In this document: in pieces, positions 1-9,325 of the stretch | How the letters are laid out: every line of letters begins with the position of its first letter | Position numbering within the stretch: the stretch's first letter is position 1 | NCBI RefSeq assembly: GCF_054482525.1 | Contig: NZ_CM137006.1 | Length of the DNA: 64,000 nucleotides | Reading direction: 5' to 3' (one strand) | Position numbers and translations under genes: made by a program | The notes under the pieces: generated by a model | What the model was told of the DNA's origin: nothing | Seen by the model: the letters and a program-made list of their open reading frames with translations, nothing else | Database searches by the model: none

Positions 1-688
1 TAGAAAGTCCGGGGGGAGTTACTGAATGTCTGTTAAGTGGTGCCGTGGGTGGAGACTGCTTACTTTTCCACAGTAACTGCAGTCATTCAGGATGCTCAGG
101 AGAGAATATGTCAACGCCACGGGCCGGGCCATTTTCATGCCAGCCAGGATATTTTCAATATTGATGCTGTCTGCTTTTCACCATTTCATCCTCACTGACT
201 GATGTTGTATTTTTGTGCAGCACTACAGATTTGCGTTTCTCTTTTAACTGGTCACGCTCTCCTTTGATATTCAGCGTGGTTGAGTGATGCAGCAGTTGAT
301 TCAGGATTGCTGTTGCCCTGCAACCACCATATCAACTTCTTCCCGGCATGCCGGCGCTGGTATCCAGGCCGGGTTTCGAAGTGAAGCGTTCCTGACGGAC
401 TCATTGATATCCGGGCCGGATGTAGTCATGCAGCATGGAACGTCTACCCGTATACACTGACGGCGTCCGGCCGTGTACATCTCTTCCGCGGTTCAGGGAG
501 CAGCTGTCGCCATGTACTTATTGTCACCAGGAGAGGCATGTACCGCAGCATGCCAGCTCAGCAGTGACAGGATGCCCTTAAGACATCCGTCATGGCTCAG
601 TATGACGACGCCCCCGCTCTGCAGGTGAGCATGCGGGGCCGGGAGCAGCATTCCCGTATTTTGCCGCACCTTCCGGAAGCAACCGGCA

Positions 689-1306
689 TCAGTTACGGTT
701 ATCGTCAACCGTTGTGCGGTATGCCAGGAGCACGTACTGATCCATCAGATCCGCCAGTGCTGCGTTCTGCTTCTGACGGTCGATGATCCATTCCCCCAGC
801 TCTTTTTCTGATTTACGTTTCAGGTTCTCCGTCCAGTCGTCAAGGCTGTTTCCGGTCATTAAATCAAGCCAGCAAAGCCAGACCAGTTTGAGGCGCAACT
901 CAGTGCCACCAAACTGACGGAAGAGGCTGATCAGTTTATTTGCCAGAGAACGCTGCCTCAGACGTTCACATTCAGACAGCAGAATGCCTTCCAGCATCGG
1001 ATGATGAACCAGCAGATGTTCGCTGGTGCATAAGTTCACCACCAGATCATCATCCAGGGGCGGCGTGGCCCGTTTGTCAGAGCCATAAATCAGCCGGTGC
1101 AGACTCCGGGGGACGATGGCAATCTCCGGTTTTTCACCATTGAATGACACCCACCCGGGCGTCAGATTATGGAAGTAGTGGATATTCGGATGACACACGC
1201 CCCAGGATACGGCGTGCCGGGTGAAGCCGGTCAGCCATTTCTGGTAGCTTTCGTGGAGCAGCTCGTAACGGGTCTGATACTGTGGTTTCATTTTCATATT
1301 CCTCAC
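689..1306 (-). CDS. hypothetical protein (205 aa) immediately downstream of alpA
   Basis: Intact ORF in track; same strand, 78 bp downstream of the AlpA-like gene; no motif I can assign. Confidence 0.4.
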   Translation of the reverse strand: MRNMKMKPQYQTRYELLHESYQKWLTGFTRHAVSWGVCHPNIHYFHNLTPGWVSFNGEKPEIAIVPRSLHRLIYGSDKRATPPLDDDLVVNLCTSEHLLVHHPMLEGILLSECERLRQRSLANKLISLFRQFGGTELRLKLVWLCWLDLMTGNSLDDWTENLKRKSEKELGEWIIDRQKQNAALADLMDQYVLLAYRTTVDDNRN

Positions 1307-1384
1307 GGGGGATAACAGGCAGCAGAACGCCGCCGGCAGGCCGGAGATTGCGTCTGCTGTGGGTGAAGGGGCAGTGGTTAAAAA

Positions 1385-1570
1385 TTACGGACGGGACTGT
1401 GCAATACGCGCCTGCAGCCAGGCTTCCACTTCACTTTTCAGCCAGCGGGAGCTGCGGCCAAGTTTGATGGGAGCCGGAAAGGCCCCATCCTTGATGAGCT
1501 TGTAAAACCACTTATCGGTCAGGCCGGTCAGCTGAGTGATAAACGCCATATCGACCATCTGGTCATCCAT
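1385..1570 (-). CDS. alpA: AlpA-family island/prophage transcriptional regulator
   Basis: 61-aa ORF with hallmark motif GLTDKWFYKLIKDGAFPAPIKLGRSSRWLKSEVEAWL; paralogue at 30160..30396. Confidence 0.8.
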   Translation of the reverse strand: MDDQMVDMAFITQLTGLTDKWFYKLIKDGAFPAPIKLGRSSRWLKSEVEAWLQARIAQSRP

Positions 1571-1975
1571 CAGCGAAACTGGGGGGGGTCATAAAAATCT
1601 CCTCCGGATGTTGTTAATCTCAACCGGCGTTGATGATGAAAACAACGCACCACCTTCACCGGCATAACAACCGGGGAGAAACGTAAAAAATCAGTAGGGG
1701 AATATTCCTGCCAGGAGAGAAACGGTTGTGTACAGGCAATACAGGTTGTCTGTTTTGTCAGTGAAGCCGGTATAAACGGAAGATGATTTTGTGTTGCCGG
1801 AATATGGGATGGTATTTTGTCGTGACGGAATCAGTATTTTCAGTGATGATTATTACTGCGCAGGGGAGTACCGGAGAGAAACCACGCCCTGTACCTGCCA
1901 GAGCGGTGGTTTGTATTGACTGAACGGAAGATAAAGCGAGGTAAACACTGTTGTGGTGAGCGGAGAAGACTGAGA

Positions 1976-2767
1976 TTATTCTCTGTAATTACAAACAACA
2001 GTGATCTTATCCGGTTTTTTTACCGTTACGGGTTTCAGGGGATCAATTTTATAGACCGGGGTAATGACCACGCCGTAATTTATGGAGAAAAGCGGGATCC
2101 AGCAATAAACGTCAGGATATTTCTGTGTCTCCGGAATACCTTTTGTGCCAGAGGCCATCAGATCTTTAACGCTCACGAAAAATGACTTCCGCAGATCAAA
2201 AAAGTACTCGTTATATATCACATCCTTTGCCAGCAGGATGACTGCATTACCAACAGCCGATTTTACAGGTGTTTCATCAGGTGGATTATCGTGATTGTAT
2301 ATTGTTCTTTCTATATAAATAAAACAGGCATATTTCGTCTTCTCCCCGGATAGTTGCATCTGGTATTCGCAAATGTCTTTGATATACCGACTTTCAACCC
2401 TTCCAATCATCTTATCCCGGCGATAGTGTCTTTTATGTTTCAGCGCGTACAGAACACCATTTGAACTGTCAAACTCCAGGACACTTCTGGTGAAAAGTTT
2501 GTTTTCCCAGATCTCCAGACAATACTTCTCTGCACTGACGACATTGCGTTTGTGGGGAAGATCCCGTTGATACACTCCATTTAATAAGCGTGACTGCAGT
2601 TCGCCTGCAAGTTGATAGTAACAGTTAATGTCATTAAGGACAGGTGCTGTGGCGTTGAGTAATGTGTTGATTACCTTAGAGCGCGAAAGTTTGTGGGTAT
2701 GACAGTACTCATCCACAATTCGCAGTGTCTCATCACTGGTCATATTGAAAGTTATACGTGTTGTCAT
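1976..2767 (-). CDS. hypothetical protein with N-terminal ribbon-helix-helix-like segment fused to unknown ~220-aa domain
   Basis: 263-aa ORF; N-terminus RITFNMTSDETLRIVDEYCH...SRSKVINTLL fits strand/helix/helix RHH pattern (pattern-based inference); AT-rich. Confidence 0.45.
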   Translation of the reverse strand: MTTRITFNMTSDETLRIVDEYCHTHKLSRSKVINTLLNATAPVLNDINCYYQLAGELQSRLLNGVYQRDLPHKRNVVSAEKYCLEIWENKLFTRSVLEFDSSNGVLYALKHKRHYRRDKMIGRVESRYIKDICEYQMQLSGEKTKYACFIYIERTIYNHDNPPDETPVKSAVGNAVILLAKDVIYNEYFFDLRKSFFVSVKDLMASGTKGIPETQKYPDVYCWIPLFSINYGVVITPVYKIDPLKPVTVKKPDKITVVCNYRE

Positions 2768-3097
2768 GATGAAGTTTTCTGTTAATCATACTGGTTGATA
2801 TGCATAACATTTCATAAAAAATACTGTTAATTCATATAATTGATTTTTTGACTGGTTTTATCCTCGTGTGGTGGAAAGCAGTATTACTGCCACTGTAGTC
2901 AGCATAAATCTATCACACAGAACCACCGAAAATGAAGCATTGCTCAGGGGGAAGCTGCCACTCGTATGAGTTCTCTGAACCATGATAACCAGTATTTTTC
3001 GTTTTGGGTGATTTGTTTATCGTTACAGCTACATACAGTTCATGTACCATTAAAAAATAATAAAGGTTAATTAGTATTATTTATAGAAGTATGTTTA

Positions 3098-3148
3098 TGT
3101 AATTCTACCGTGTAAATGAACCCTGTAATTCTACCTTGTAAATACACC
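3098..3148. repeat. tandem direct repeat (2 x ~25 bp) in AT-rich intergenic region
   Basis: Read directly: tgtaattctaccgtgtaaatgaacc followed by ctgtaattctaccttgtaaatacacc; extra tagaagt copies nearby. Confidence 0.6.
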
Positions 3149-4182
3149 TTGTAACCAAGTCCTGTAGAAGTCTGTCTCATAGAAGTATCTGTGCAGTGAT
3201 ATTCTCTGTAGTAGTACTTGTAACTCTGTCCTTAACTCTCTCTTCAGTAATGTAGTCCCGCAACACCTGAATATAAATCTGTAATGTTCACACACTGACT
3301 GTAACGTGCTTTGTTAAGTAATGTCTGCTATTTTTTTCTGTTATTTTTCCTGTTGTTTTCTGTATTTTGTTGTATGGTGTAATAACTATTCTGAACCCGT
3401 CATCACCTTTATAGCTAAGAGTATGACTTCGCCAGTGTTGATACTGTGGATAACGGTGATTAAGGAATTACTGTTAATGATCTGTTCCTGCAGCTCACCT
3501 GATGAGTTTTGGTAGTAATACGTAAAAGAGTATGCCTCATGTCATTAAAAAGTCTTCCGGAGTGTTGTTTAACCCTGTACCTCTGTTACTCATGTAGTAC
3601 GTTGCGGAAAGCTACGTTAATTGTAATATCTGGTTATGGCGTTATGCCTTCAGTATTAAAAACATCTTTTACCGGAGAAACTGGGAAGTGGAAAGGCTTT
3701 CGGGATAACGTCAGGCCATTATGACGATATTACGTTAATCACAGTACAAGATAACGAGAGGGTAATGGAATTTTAAACCAGAGTAGTTCCACTGTTGTTC
3801 ACTGGAAAAAGTGATTTCCCACGCGCGTTATAAGCTTACTCCAGAGGAGATGGAAGCCTTCAACTCTGCGGTCGATCACCGGCTGGCAGAACTGACCATG
3901 AACAAACTTTACGATCGTGTTCCCGCTTCAGTCTGGAAATATGTTACCTGATAAATGTTTCTGATGAAGTACAGTCGTCACAATGACATCACTTCAGATA
4001 TTATCTGCGCTGTGATTGACTGTCACGTATGCCGTTCTCTGTATGGTTCTGATACCCGGGTGTGGTCCCACTTTCTCTGTGGCGCCCGGGGAGTTGTGAA
4101 CCTGCACGTCTTCGTGTGATAACGTTTTCTTCAAAAATTACGCCAGCGCTTCTTCCTGTGTTACAGAACACGAGGAAGAAAC

Positions 4183-4782
4183 ATGAAGACTTACAACACC
4201 AATCCCGGTTACGAAATGGATCCCCAGCTCCTGACACACTTTAACCAGCATCTGGATTCATTATTCGGGGTATATTCGAAACTGTTACCGTTCAGAATGG
4301 ATTTTGCTTACCGAAAAAACACCCTCAGCTACAGATGTGCCTGCAGGTACGCCATGTGCGCGGAGATACTGCGACTGATTAACGAAGTGGGAGAGAAACT
4401 GGTCGGGTATGCCTGGGTAATGGAATATACGGAACGTAAAGGGCTTCACATTCATTTTGTGGGCTATCTGAACGGTCAGAGCCACAGGAGTTCGTATCTG
4501 GTATCCAGATTGATGGGAGATATCTGGAGGCGGGTTACCGAGGGTGATGGTTACTACCACTGGTGCCGGTTTAATAAAAATTATCCGGTAAACATTAACC
4601 ACGTCATTCACTATTCAGATCACAAAGCGGTGAATGCCTTACGCTATGCCATCAGCTACCTGGCCAAACGAGAACAGAAAGAATGTGGCATCATCCTGAA
4701 ATGCAGCGGGCTTCCTGAAAAAAGTAATCGGGGTCGACCGCGACTGGGCAGCCCCCTGCCGGAGACTTATTCTCTGGTGTAA
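4183..4782 (+). CDS. inovirus Gp2-family protein (YagK/YfjJ-like, rolling-circle initiator homologue)
   Basis: 199-aa ORF; motifs LPFRMDFAYRKN, GLHIHFVGYL, ALRYAISYLAKRE shared with paralogues at 23552 and 28669. Confidence 0.65.
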   Translation: MKTYNTNPGYEMDPQLLTHFNQHLDSLFGVYSKLLPFRMDFAYRKNTLSYRCACRYAMCAEILRLINEVGEKLVGYAWVMEYTERKGLHIHFVGYLNGQSHRSSYLVSRLMGDIWRRVTEGDGYYHWCRFNKNYPVNINHVIHYSDHKAVNALRYAISYLAKREQKECGIILKCSGLPEKSNRGRPRLGSPLPETYSLV

Positions 4783-5090
4783 GACCCTGAACGACAACTA
4801 CGGGCTGGCGCTAATTGTTACAGTCGGTTCCGGAGGCCACTTCAGGGACTCTGCGCATTTTTTACGACATGGCTATTCCGTATGAACCATACGGAGATTT
4901 AACCATGGCACATTCTTTACCATTCCTTCCGGCAACCGATACAGCACATCCTCCGATGTCCATCCCTGCCTGCTGACAGTTTTTTACGCCGGAGGGCCAT
5001 TGTGTGACAACCACAGTGCTGTAACAGCAACCAGCCTGCTTTACCCAAACTCCAGTCCAGATTTTAACTGAACCGCCATTCACACCCTGA

Positions 5091-7290
<2,200 letters not shown>

Positions 7291-7302
7291 GCTTTTCATA
7301 CT

Positions 7303-7803
7303 TTATGAACGTACATCAGCAAAATGCGTCAGTAATTTTTGATTAATGTCTTTAAACAGTTCACGTTCATCATAGGTCAGAGGACTCCAGATTTCTTTCA
7401 GGTACTGGTTTTGTGTAAGGGTAATGCCCTGAATAAAGGACAGGCCTTCAGATGTCAGACTGATTTTTTTAGCACGGCGGTCCTCTTTGCTATCAGTTCT
7501 TTCTGTATATCCGGCTTTTTCTAAAAAATCTGTAATGCGGGTAATGTTTGTTCTGGTAAACTGGAGTTCTCTGCTGATCTCTGAAGGCGAAAGACAATGA
7601 TTATCTGCTGTAGATAATACGGTGAGAACCATATATGTTGAGTAATTTATTCCGTATCCTCCCAGCATTCTCGATATATTATCCTGTATTTTCTTGTTTG
7701 CACGGATACAGAGTTGTATCAAAAGATGTTCCTGACAGGGATACAGGGGATCTTTGTTTTGTTGATATTTGATTATCTTCTCTAATGAGTGTATGTTTTC
7801 CAT
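7303..7803 (-). CDS. MarR-family winged-helix regulator (possibly fimbrial-operon X-type, PapX/SfaX-like)
   Basis: 166-aa ORF with MarR-like wHTH region (LSPSEISRELQFTRTNITRITDFLEKAGYTER...DRRAKKISLT); subfamily from memory only; 3' end lies 13 bp from IS100. Confidence 0.55.
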   Translation of the reverse strand: MENIHSLEKIIKYQQNKDPLYPCQEHLLIQLCIRANKKIQDNISRMLGGYGINYSTYMVLTVLSTADNHCLSPSEISRELQFTRTNITRITDFLEKAGYTERTDSKEDRRAKKISLTSEGLSFIQGITLTQNQYLKEIWSPLTYDERELFKDINQKLLTHFADVRS

Positions 7804-8603
7804 TTAATCATTTTCCATATACTGAAACATTCTGCCTTTATATAAAAGTGCATCAGTCATCCGGTAAATATCTACTTTTCACAACAATCTATGACTGCCT
7901 GATATCTGTATGAGTGAGGCGGCCCGGCAGAGAGTAAGAGCAGATTCCTTCAAATAAAAGAACATAAATGTTCATCGCTGACAAGATGGTGAAAGAATTA
8001 TTTATACTGTTAAATCAGTATAGATAATCTATCTGCCCCTGTGCTTTGTTGAACGAATCCTGACGGCCCTGAATATTCATGCAATATTATTTTATTCAGT
8101 GCACGGTAATATCCTGATTTCCATAGCATGGTGGATATGTGTATCCGGGATGGATGTTTACCAGAACCTTCTCTGTTCCAGTGTGTGGAGTTTTACAGAA
8201 GAGGCGACTGTATGCAACTCTTGCCCCGTAACTGTCTTTATTCGTTTCTCCACACTCTCCGGACATTGTAAATTCCAGATGTGTGGCAGTGTGTTTTTCG
8301 TAAATCGTACACAATGCATTTTTACACGGAGTTCAGCCAGTCGTATCACTGAGAGTTTTTTTTCTGATTTGTACCACTCATGCAGCAGTGATAAGGAGAT
8401 ATTTTCTCTGTCGGGCCAGCAGGGGCGGTGCCACCTGTTTAGTTTTCTTATGTTTGGTAAAAGAGAGGCTAAAATATATACAACAGGCGTATGTAATGAT
8501 TCATATTGTTAATCATTAACCAGTAAGAATTAATGTAGTGGATCGGTAATTCAGGACACCTCGAAATCCTGTTAATGTTAAAACAGTGAAAATGGGGTGA
8601 TGC

Positions 8604-8921
8604 ATGAGCAAAACTCGTCGGACTAAACGCACCTTTTCCCCGGAGTTCAGGCTCGAAGCTATCGAGCAAGTAGTTAAATACCAGCGCGATGTCAGAGAAG
8701 TCGCGCTGGCACTTGAGCTCAATCCTGACCATTTGCGTAAATGGATACGGTTGTATAAGCTGGAACTTCAGGGTATTGAGCCCGCTGGTAATGCCATACC
8801 CCTGAACAGCGAGAAATTCAGCAGCTTAAAAGCGCAGATAAAGCGCCTTGAGATGGAAAAAGAAATACTAAAGCAGGCTGCCGTGCTGATGAGCGAAATC
8901 CCCGGCAAGCTGTCGCGCTAA
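8604..8921 (+). CDS. IS3-family transposase OrfA; downstream OrfB truncated after ~35 codons (IS remnant)
   Basis: 105-aa ORF with IS3-type OrfA pattern (FSPEFRLEAI..., leucine-zipper-like LEMEKEILKQAAVLM); orfB-like frame stops near 9030. Confidence 0.6.
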   Translation: MSKTRRTKRTFSPEFRLEAIEQVVKYQRDVREVALALELNPDHLRKWIRLYKLELQGIEPAGNAIPLNSEKFSSLKAQIKRLEMEKEILKQAAVLMSEIPGKLSR

Positions 8922-9325
8922 TCACACTGCTGAAAGCAAAGCGGCCAGTGCGGATTATTTGTCATTTATTCGGTGTTCACCGTAGCGTTTATTACGCGCA
9001 GGTGAAGCGTCCTGTTAATGTATCAGCGCCAATGATATAAGACAGTAATTAGGATTCGGACGATTTCCTGGACTGCTTTATTATGCCAGCCCGCATTGTT
9101 GGCGGTACATTTCAGGGATGACTGCACCCAGCGAAAATTTTATACGCCGCTCGTTATACCATCTGATGTAAGCATCCACATGCCGCATGAATTTTTCAGG
9201 CGTGATACCCAATCATTTACGCCCATAATATATTTCAGTTTTCAGTCTGCCGAAAAAGCCTTCGCATGCAGCATTATCAGGCGAGCATCCTTTACGGGAC
9301 ATTGAGCGAATAAGGCCTGCTGTAT

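Follow-up and report, generated by a model that had tools for sequence, protein, structure and literature searches.

A YagM-family gene of an Escherichia coli genomic island encodes a predicted ribbon-helix-helix protein and adjoins a conserved inverted repeat

The gene at positions 1976-2767 (minus strand) of a 64,000-nucleotide stretch of DNA, here called the window (contig NZ_CM137006.1 of NCBI RefSeq assembly GCF_054482525.1), encodes a protein of 263 aa with an ATG start that RefSeq lists as WP_001301056.1, "hypothetical protein". By homology, it is a genuine and conserved member of the uncharacterised YagM family (PF27701/UCP007319) of Escherichia coli genomic islands. The protein contains a predicted N-terminal ribbon-helix-helix (RHH) DNA-binding domain, and a 26-bp inverted repeat, conserved across lineages, lies directly upstream of its start codon. 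It is rather likely that the protein, as an RHH regulator belonging to the island core module, controls its own gene through this start-codon-proximal repeat. The "hypothetical protein" thus becomes a testable proposal: an RHH regulator whose candidate operator measures 26 bp and which has AlpA and a Rep-like protein as its conserved partners. An initial annotation of the window had described the open reading frame (ORF) as a DNA-binding effector or an autoregulated gene with tandem repeats as operators. The present analysis adds the candidate operator, a three-gene module, and a C-terminal domain that lacks a structural relative.

The YagM-family gene

The 263-aa ORF is real, and its N-terminal sequence MTTRITFN is collinear with the N-termini of its homologues in the alignment, so the ATG at 2767 is the right start codon. 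A word-indexed search returned 28 relatives of the protein and an exhaustive phmmer search 38 representative ones, while a scan of the genome collection with a narrower alignment (A1) found 6 loci. The family defined by sequence similarity is narrow, being confined to Enterobacterales and Aeromonas. Homologues with 45-57% identity over the full length are found in Citrobacter, Salmonella, Klebsiella, Hafnia, Cedecea, Enterobacter, Pectobacterium, and Aeromonas, and distant ones (19-36% identity) stay collinear with the protein over its whole length, starting at residue 1. No member was found among the 50,697 records of a phage collection.

All homologues from the word-indexed search bear the precomputed Pfam label PF27701, which is named UCP007319. 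The Pfam-A set used for the profile search excludes PF27701, and that search assigned no family to the 263-aa protein or to any of the 24 aligned members; its sole match was DUF6364, at a best E of ~1e-3, in 4 of the 24. PHROGs returned nothing for the protein, PADLOC gave no family at E <= 1 for the protein or its neighbours, and a full-text literature search for PF27701 and UCP007319 returned no papers.

E. coli K-12 YagM (b0279, CP4-6 prophage) is a homologue of the protein. BLASTP aligns the window protein with YagM at E 3e-14 over 265 columns with 25% identity, and hhalign aligns the family profile with it over 244 columns at a probability of 100% and E 8e-41. The Prokaryotic Genome Annotation Pipeline (PGAP) gives one E. 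coli allele of the 263-aa gene the name "YagM family protein". The window protein represents a paralogue group, ~25% identical to YagM, within this recognised family, and its predicted DNA-binding fold is of a well-known kind. The annotated K-12 yagM gene (L032, 4946-5800; loci of the comparison set carry L numbers) encodes 284 aa and begins ~35 residues ahead of the M-x-x-R-I-T-F start of all other members; either the annotation places its start codon too far upstream or the paralogue is extended at its N-terminus. In genome-wide screens, yagM is an overexpression hit for H2O2 and HOCl tolerance, and the Keio yagM mutant loses rifampin-induced tolerance. The yagM RNA is also used in studies as a strong Rho-dependent terminator.

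The setting of the ORF, an AT-rich island ridden with insertion sequences (IS) and with pseudogenes nearby (a truncated hha, a truncated zinc-ribbon gene, and an AAA fragment), would suit a decayed or spurious ORF within silenced foreign DNA, and the initial annotation had raised the possibility of a decayed fragment of a longer known gene. There is next to no chance of this. The pseudogene reading is excluded because the protein is conserved over its full length at 45-57% identity in the genera named above, the ratio of nonsynonymous to synonymous divergence (dN/dS) is about 0.3 (0.28-0.32 among three E. coli alleles), and the AlphaFold2 (AF2) fold is confident. Synonymous divergence (dS) of the gene among E. 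coli alleles is 5-10%.

The N-terminal RHH domain

The predicted RHH domain comprises residues ~1-45 (2633-2767, minus strand) and consists of a strand (RITFN), a helix at residues 12-25, an SRS N-cap, and a second helix at residues 29-62. The family consensus in this region is M-x-x-R-I-T-F-N ... T-L-x-x-x-D-E-Y ... I-S-R-S-x-V-I-x-x-L-L, and S28, R29, and S30 are invariant or almost so. The consensus fits the pattern of strand, helix, S/T N-cap, and helix that marks CopG/Arc/MetJ proteins. The aCcr1 RHH model matches residues 6-33 of the window protein (E 0.0025) and residues 5-33/34 of three other members (E 2e-4 to 5e-3). A profile search of Protein Data Bank sequences aligns CopG from residue 1 at a non-significant E of ~1, and hhalign aligns the family profile end to end with CopG residues 1-38 at a probability of 87% and E 4e-6. 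Several family members carry the UniProt name "CopG family".

The AF2 model, built from a 24-sequence alignment, has a mean predicted local distance difference test score (pLDDT) of 81, and its helices 12-25 and 29-62 fit an RHH unit. The best structural matches of the N-terminal part are antitoxins of the ParD, TacA, and MazE types, with TraM also among the matches. The earlier RHH call is thus upheld by the aCcr1 match, the alignment with CopG, the structural matches, and the modelled helices, which together support the prediction that the strand-helix-turn-helix N-terminus, with its S/T N-cap, is an RHH domain.

The C-terminal domain

Residues 77-263 (1979-2539, minus strand) are predicted to form an alpha/beta domain with the conserved motifs IYxxR, YFFD, and CWIP and no detectable relative beyond the family. 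Family-wide, the sole invariant residues of the domain are D191 and G207; E125, R154, F190, W223, P225, and P237 are near-invariant. No catalytic signature can be read from the conserved residues in the family alignment. Although the model is confident, it matches no solved fold, toxins and nucleases included, and Pfam-A, PADLOC, and PHROGs likewise leave the domain unassignable, as the initial annotation had stated. A confident model that lacks a match among solved folds makes residues 77-263 a reasonable target for structure determination. The domain may serve in oligomerisation or in partner or ligand binding.

The conserved core module

In every chromosomal locus with enough flanking sequence, an AlpA-family gene and a YagK/YfjJ-type gene (YagK_YfjJ_C/REP_ORF2-G2P) lie within 2 kb of the YagM-like gene, and this trio usually adjoins a P4-type integrase gene. 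The YagM-like gene is part of the conserved core shared by CP4-6/CP4-57-type integrative islands, which comprises the P4-type integrase, AlpA, the YagM-like protein, and the Rep-like YagK/YfjJ protein. Three gene orders are found. In order A (L011-15, L024-27, L034, and K-12 CP4-6), which often occupies the ssrA/smpB site, int is followed by a ~250-aa gene on the minus strand and then by AlpA, YagM-like, an optional resolvase-like gene, and YfjJ-like, transcribed in that direction. In order B (L002-5 and L016-17), the YagM-like gene is followed by a GTPase gene and a DUF932 gene and diverges from YfjJ-like, beyond which lies AlpA on the same strand as YfjJ-like. In order C, that of the window, Hha and YfjJ-like genes on the plus strand diverge from YagM-like, AlpA, and a 205-aa gene on the minus strand. 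Neither K-12 YfjH, which occupies the equivalent slot in CP4-57, nor the ~250-aa gene between int and alpA in order A, which shares the position of YfjH, is homologous to the YagM-like gene.

The inverted repeat

The candidate operator is an inverted repeat at 2782-2807, with extended arms at 2780-2809, that ends 14 nt short of the ATG. Its minus-strand reading is TTATGCA-N12-TGATTAA; the window sequence runs TGTTATGCAT-ATCAACCAGT-ATGATTAACA, followed by 12 nt and the ATG. The form conserved across lineages is TTATGCA-N12-TGCATAA. In the cross-locus alignment, the arms are conserved and their spacing is fixed, while the sequence of the 12-nt spacer varies. The initial annotation had placed the operators in tandem repeats farther upstream; the conserved element is this inverted repeat instead.

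In all gene orders, the repeat lies within the intergenic region between the YagM-like and YfjJ-like genes and abuts the YagM-like gene. It stands 5-14 nt upstream of the gene in the window and L018, in Citrobacter (L002), in Pectobacterium (L005 and L022), and in the Klebsiella, Hafnia, Cedecea, and Enterobacter group (L019-23), where it has 1 mismatch. At such a distance upstream, L016 and L017 contain a perfect 10-bp palindrome pair, TGTTATGCAT-N10-ATGCATAACA, although their protein is just 21% identical to that of the window. In order A loci, the repeat is found 15-65 nt past the stop codon of the YagM-like gene: L013-15 have a perfect copy and a second copy (1 mismatch) 64 nt on, L011 and L012 have a copy with 2 mismatches, and L026 has a 1-mismatch copy and a weaker second one. 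The two copies, 64-65 nt apart, occupy 6775-6865 in L013, 2410-2500 in L014, and 973-1064 in L026. An 82-aa antisense ORF has been called across the paired copies in L014 and L015, and the remaining 500-800 nt ahead of the YfjJ-type gene in the double-repeat loci are unannotated.

About nine independent lineages, including the 4.1-kb plasmid described below, have a repeat with 0-2 mismatches within 5-65 nt of an end of a YagM-like gene. As a control, the opposite 150-nt flank of each gene gives a best match of 4-6 mismatches. Shuffles of the 252 kb scanned yield ~40 matches at <=3 mismatches; at <=2 mismatches, ~25 repeats are observed, ~21 of them beside the gene, against ~3 expected by chance as estimated from the shuffle counts. 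Within the spacer upstream of the window gene, the proximal 63 nt are the least diverged part among E. coli alleles, at 5-6% compared with 9-20% elsewhere.

The repeat also tracks the N-terminal strand of the protein. Every lineage with an RITF strand has a repeat with 0-2 mismatches, and the repeat has 3-5 mismatches or is absent where the strand is KVTT (L027), RITI (L024), EITF (L025), RVSF (L034), HSVTF (K-12 YagM), or PTSI (L006). The Providencia plasmid NZ_CP114799.1 (L033), a circle of 4,136 bp, encodes a YagM-like protein (MTKRITFN...) followed by a serine recombinase and has TTATGCA-N13-TGAATAA (1 mismatch) 12 nt upstream of the YagM-like gene. No AlpA- or YfjJ-type ORF is present on this plasmid. 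Together with the tracking of RITF, it points to the YagM-like protein, not AlpA or the Rep-like protein, as the binder of the repeat. The plasmid has three annotated genes (YagM-like, serine recombinase, and a 381-aa hypothetical protein) and ~1.4 kb of unannotated sequence. It has no recognisable replication gene and no Rfam match, hence no ColE1-type RNAI, and GGTATC/GATACC repeats lie between its YagM-like and recombinase genes.

Differences in one arm, such as ATGCATAACA to ATGATTAACA, are never compensated in the opposite arm, which speaks for a double-stranded DNA site and not a hairpin. An RNA hairpin or terminator was rejected on the grounds of the missing compensatory changes, the AT-rich stem, and the loop of 10-12 nt.

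Proposed mechanism

In the proposed mechanism, dimers of the protein would dock on TTATGCA-N12-TGCATAA by placing the paired RITF strands of their N-termini in its two half-sites, and binding at the repeat 14 nt upstream of the window start codon would repress transcription of the gene itself. We infer the binding of the protein to the repeat, the repressive direction of the regulation, and the stoichiometry. Binding would probably also affect the neighbouring YfjJ/AlpA transcription unit, because the repeat is always located in the YagM-like/YfjJ intergenic region. The autoregulation suggested by the initial annotation is plausible in this form.

Several observations weigh against the proposal. 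No member of the family, including the 263-aa protein and all 24 aligned sequences, matches Pfam RHH_1, and the sequence-level RHH matches all fall under curated cut-offs. Residues 1-11 are coil in the AF2 monomer model, which is consistent with an unpaired RHH strand, as would be expected in a monomer. Consensus scans find no sigma-70-like promoter on the strand of the gene near the repeat in the window, L002, or L016; in L019, there is one ~75 nt upstream of the start. In order A loci the repeat is downstream of the gene, and simple autorepression cannot be its whole role because the repeat follows the gene in these AlpA, YagM-like, YfjJ loci. K-12 YagM lacks a good copy of the repeat, and the literature on YagM consists of the genome-wide screens and the Rho-terminator use described above.

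The tandem array and the AT-rich spacer

The tandem array that the initial annotation had noted in the AT-rich upstream DNA is real. It spans 3098-3162, 331-395 nt upstream of the ATG, and consists of five 13-bp TGTAA-headed units with a 26-bp super-period. Tandem Repeats Finder (TRF) reports a period of 26 with 2.2 copies and 87% matches at 3098-3154, with an underlying period of 13, and an exact 12-nt match at offset 26 is reached by only 1 of 1000 spacer shuffles. Three copies of TAGAAGT(A/C)T at 3084, 3165, and 3180 (span 3084-3190) flank the array. On the minus strand, the array contains four overlapping -35/-10-like matches of the TTACA-N16-TAGAAT type. It could serve as the promoter of a long-leader transcript, but such matches are common in AT-rich foreign DNA.

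The array differs among strains. Across five distinct E. coli-type arrays, the number of TGTAA copies lies between 2 and 6, the unit structure differs, and some units are 8 nt long; some other strains have an extra CTCATAAAGATAT unit in this region. The array appears to be an ordinary polymorphic minisatellite, one that would contribute promoter-like hexamers at most from its far-upstream position. Repeat finders and TRF detected no comparable TGTAA array in the intergenic regions of L002, L005, L011, L013, and L016. The L018 locus (JAIJJM010000108.1), a 7.2-kb contig from a metagenome-assembled genome labelled "Collinsella sp.", carries a 92%-identical gene, the same candidate operator, and an array with a TGTAA count of 6. 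Collinsella is an actinobacterium, and the contig is almost certainly a mis-binned E. coli contig.

The spacer at 2808-3801 contains no conserved ORF and belongs to this E. coli island type only. It is AT-rich, with 34-39% GC over the stretch ~2550-3750. It is found in 753 of the 5426 complete E. coli genomes. When the 1.4-kb region between the YagM-like and YfjJ-type genes was compared by blastn with the other loci and with the remainder of the window, the only match was an AT-rich one of 18 nt, and an Rfam search of 1-9000 at a permissive threshold found nothing in the spacer. Among E. coli alleles, the spacer diverges by 9-20% and has many indels whose length is no multiple of 3; the load of substitutions and indels is heaviest in the array region. 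Since this divergence is at least the dS of the gene, neither constraint nor any conserved small ORF is evident in the spacer. Small spacer ORFs, such as 3321-3515 on the plus strand, were rejected as genes since other strains have 47-nt and 16-nt deletions there. The spacer is probably silenced by H-NS/Hha. The initial annotation had described a further 1.4 kb as non-coding; 1.04 kb of it is, and the rest includes an Hha-family ORF that begins at 3802/3811, before the YagK/YfjJ-type gene at 4183.

Alternative explanations

The initial annotation took the TGTAA array and the TAGAAGT repeats 330-430 bp upstream as the operators through which the RHH protein autoregulates its gene. RHH proteins commonly bind tandem repeats (omega, MetJ, ParG), the array is non-random, and its units on the strand of the gene could form a long-leader promoter. 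As operators they are nonetheless decidedly improbable: no equivalent array is found in homologous loci beyond this E. coli island type, the TGTAA count and unit structure vary by strain, and the DNA around the array has diverged at or above the synonymous rate, with the highest substitution and indel load of the spacer. Moreover, the array is lacking from the Providencia plasmid and from the intergenic regions of other genera, which are compact (290-390 bp). Still less probable is a fused antitoxin-toxin or anti-phage effector, in which an antitoxin-like RHH head would be joined to a toxic C-terminal domain. The structural matches to ParD-, TacA-, and MazE-type antitoxins would fit such a fusion, as would the CbtA/CbeA, RelE/ParD, AbiEii, and restriction systems near several of the loci, in islands that are rich in toxin-antitoxin and defence genes. 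The earlier "effector" idea finds no support from defence or toxin profiles, however. PADLOC gives no match, the C-terminal domain resembles no toxin or nuclease fold, and D191 is the sole acidic residue invariant family-wide, and no catalytic signature is present. The gene also belongs to the conserved core beside int and alpA and not to the variable cargo region.

An accessory role in replication or mobilisation is unlikely. The RHH protein would bind the repeat as part of an ori or oriT and would recruit or position the putative HUH-type YagK/YfjJ nuclease, in the manner of RHH relaxosome proteins of the TraM, TraY, and MobC types, and this accessory role would let the excised island replicate or be mobilised. 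The invariable linkage of the YagM-like gene with the Rep-like gene and the presence of TraM among the structural matches speak for it. Against it, the repeat and the YagM-like gene co-occur on a plasmid with no YfjJ-type ORF, and the loop of the repeat lacks sequence conservation, which leaves no obvious nick site. These two observations make an accessory role less likely as the primary one. Nor are these islands known to replicate or transfer, and the family is absent from the phage records. It is quite unlikely that the YagM-like protein, the repeat, AlpA, and the YagK/YfjJ protein of HUH type make up an unrecognised relaxosome-like complex for replication or mobilisation. If true, this would turn the abundant Enterobacterales "cryptic prophages" of the CP4-6/CP4-57/Ag43 type into active integrative elements that replicate or can be mobilised, and the C-terminal domain, as a new fold, would be an adaptor that recruits the nuclease. 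The autoregulated RHH regulator acting through the inverted repeat remains the preferred interpretation.

Island context in the window

The window is E. coli chromosomal DNA from a genomic island of mosaic make-up, and several complete genomes match bases 1700-4900 at 100% identity. The annotated copy in strain AH50 runs from Ag43 through a YfjP-type GTPase gene, a cargo block of LysR, MFS, and hydrolase genes, and an AAA fragment to a 205-aa hypothetical gene, AlpA, the 263-aa WP_001301056.1, a ~1-kb gap, and an Hha/YmoA-family gene. Next come the YagK/YfjJ gene, annotated as "inovirus-type Gp2", and a truncated zinc-ribbon gene, followed by IS100, the gene of a MarR regulator, debris of IS3, and the gene of a P4-type integrase.

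The AlpA-family regulator or excisionase-like gene (1385-1570, minus strand) lies 405 nt downstream of the YagM-like gene on the same strand and encodes the conserved Phage_AlpA partner. Downstream of alpA is the 205-aa hypothetical gene (689-1306, minus strand), which has no match in NCBIfam, PHROGs, or PADLOC; in L002-4, a gene of similar size (191 aa) comes after AlpA. The other conserved partner, the YagK/YfjJ-type gene ("inovirus Gp2-type", REP_ORF2-G2P; 4183-4782, plus strand), was assigned by annotation and is divergent from the YagM-like gene. Its product aligns with K-12 YfjJ over an H-x-H segment (HIH compared with HYH) and contains an LHIHF motif and a YAISYLAKR segment, which recall HUH rolling-circle Rep or relaxase enzymes. 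From the H-x-H motif and the Pfam family name, it is a putative HUH-type Rep.

The Hha/YmoA-family gene (3802/3811-3951, plus strand) is a 5'-truncated island paralogue of the hha2/hha3 type, identified by the NCBIfam Hha model (E 4.5e-21) and by PGAP. The ORF spans only positions 28-71 of the Hha profile, and the frame upstream of it has a stop codon; strain B1W1 has a full-length 70-aa hha at the equivalent position (L008, 4954-5166). Island-borne hha2/hha3 paralogues and their tie to Ag43 islands have been described (PMC4864382, PMC6480617). Beyond the YfjJ-type gene, the insertion of IS100 (IS21-family istA/istB; 5403-7204, minus strand) truncates a "putative zinc ribbon protein" gene (5148-5393, plus strand), which other strains (L007 and L008) have intact and in duplicate downstream of the YfjJ-type gene. 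A MarR-family regulator gene (7303-7803, minus strand) lies beside IS100 in AT-rich DNA (36-39% GC) of the same island.

Implications

YagM is an E. coli K-12 protein of still-undescribed role, and its relatives sit in the invariant core of a very common class of enterobacterial islands, whose genes include Ag43, CbtA/CbeA, restriction systems, and hha paralogues. The allele group of the window is present in ~700 of the 5426 complete E. coli genomes. If true, the RHH regulator proposal would help explain how these islands control their excision and maintenance.

Comparison with known systems

The relaxosome proteins TraM and TraY differ from the present system in their setting. Here, no relaxase of a recognised MOB family, nic site, or conjugation genes were identified, and the repeat occurs also where there is no Rep-like gene.

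The antitoxins ParD, TacA, and MazE have a tail that wraps the toxin, whereas the window protein has a folded C-terminal domain instead and is three times larger. The layout of a type II RHH antitoxin is likewise not found: the protein has 263 aa, no toxin gene is adjacent, AlpA follows 405 nt downstream, and the gene on the upstream side is divergently oriented. Nor does any toxin family consistently adjoin the YagM-like gene in the other loci examined.

The N-terminal strand-helix-helix of the window protein aligns from residue 1 with the CopG/Arc/MetJ repressors, such as CopG of pMV158, and gives structural matches to RHH proteins. In autoregulated CopG/Arc systems, the operator overlaps the 5' region of the gene itself, and the operator-like inverted repeat of the window is placed likewise. 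CopG has 45 aa, whereas the window protein has 200 residues more, including the domain that lacks a known fold. The half-site starts of the candidate site are 19 bp apart, compared with a compact 13-bp element for CopG.

K-12 YagM differs from the window protein in its strand (HSVTF instead of RITF) and its helix cap (SHS instead of SRS). Gene order and orientation also differ, with the window gene divergent from the YfjJ-type gene and unaccompanied by a YagL-type resolvase. The two proteins are nevertheless homologous over nearly their whole length at ~25% identity, and the island context of K-12 yagM (intF-yagN-ykgV-yagM-yagL-yagK) is like that of int, AlpA, YagM-like, and YfjJ-like in the window.

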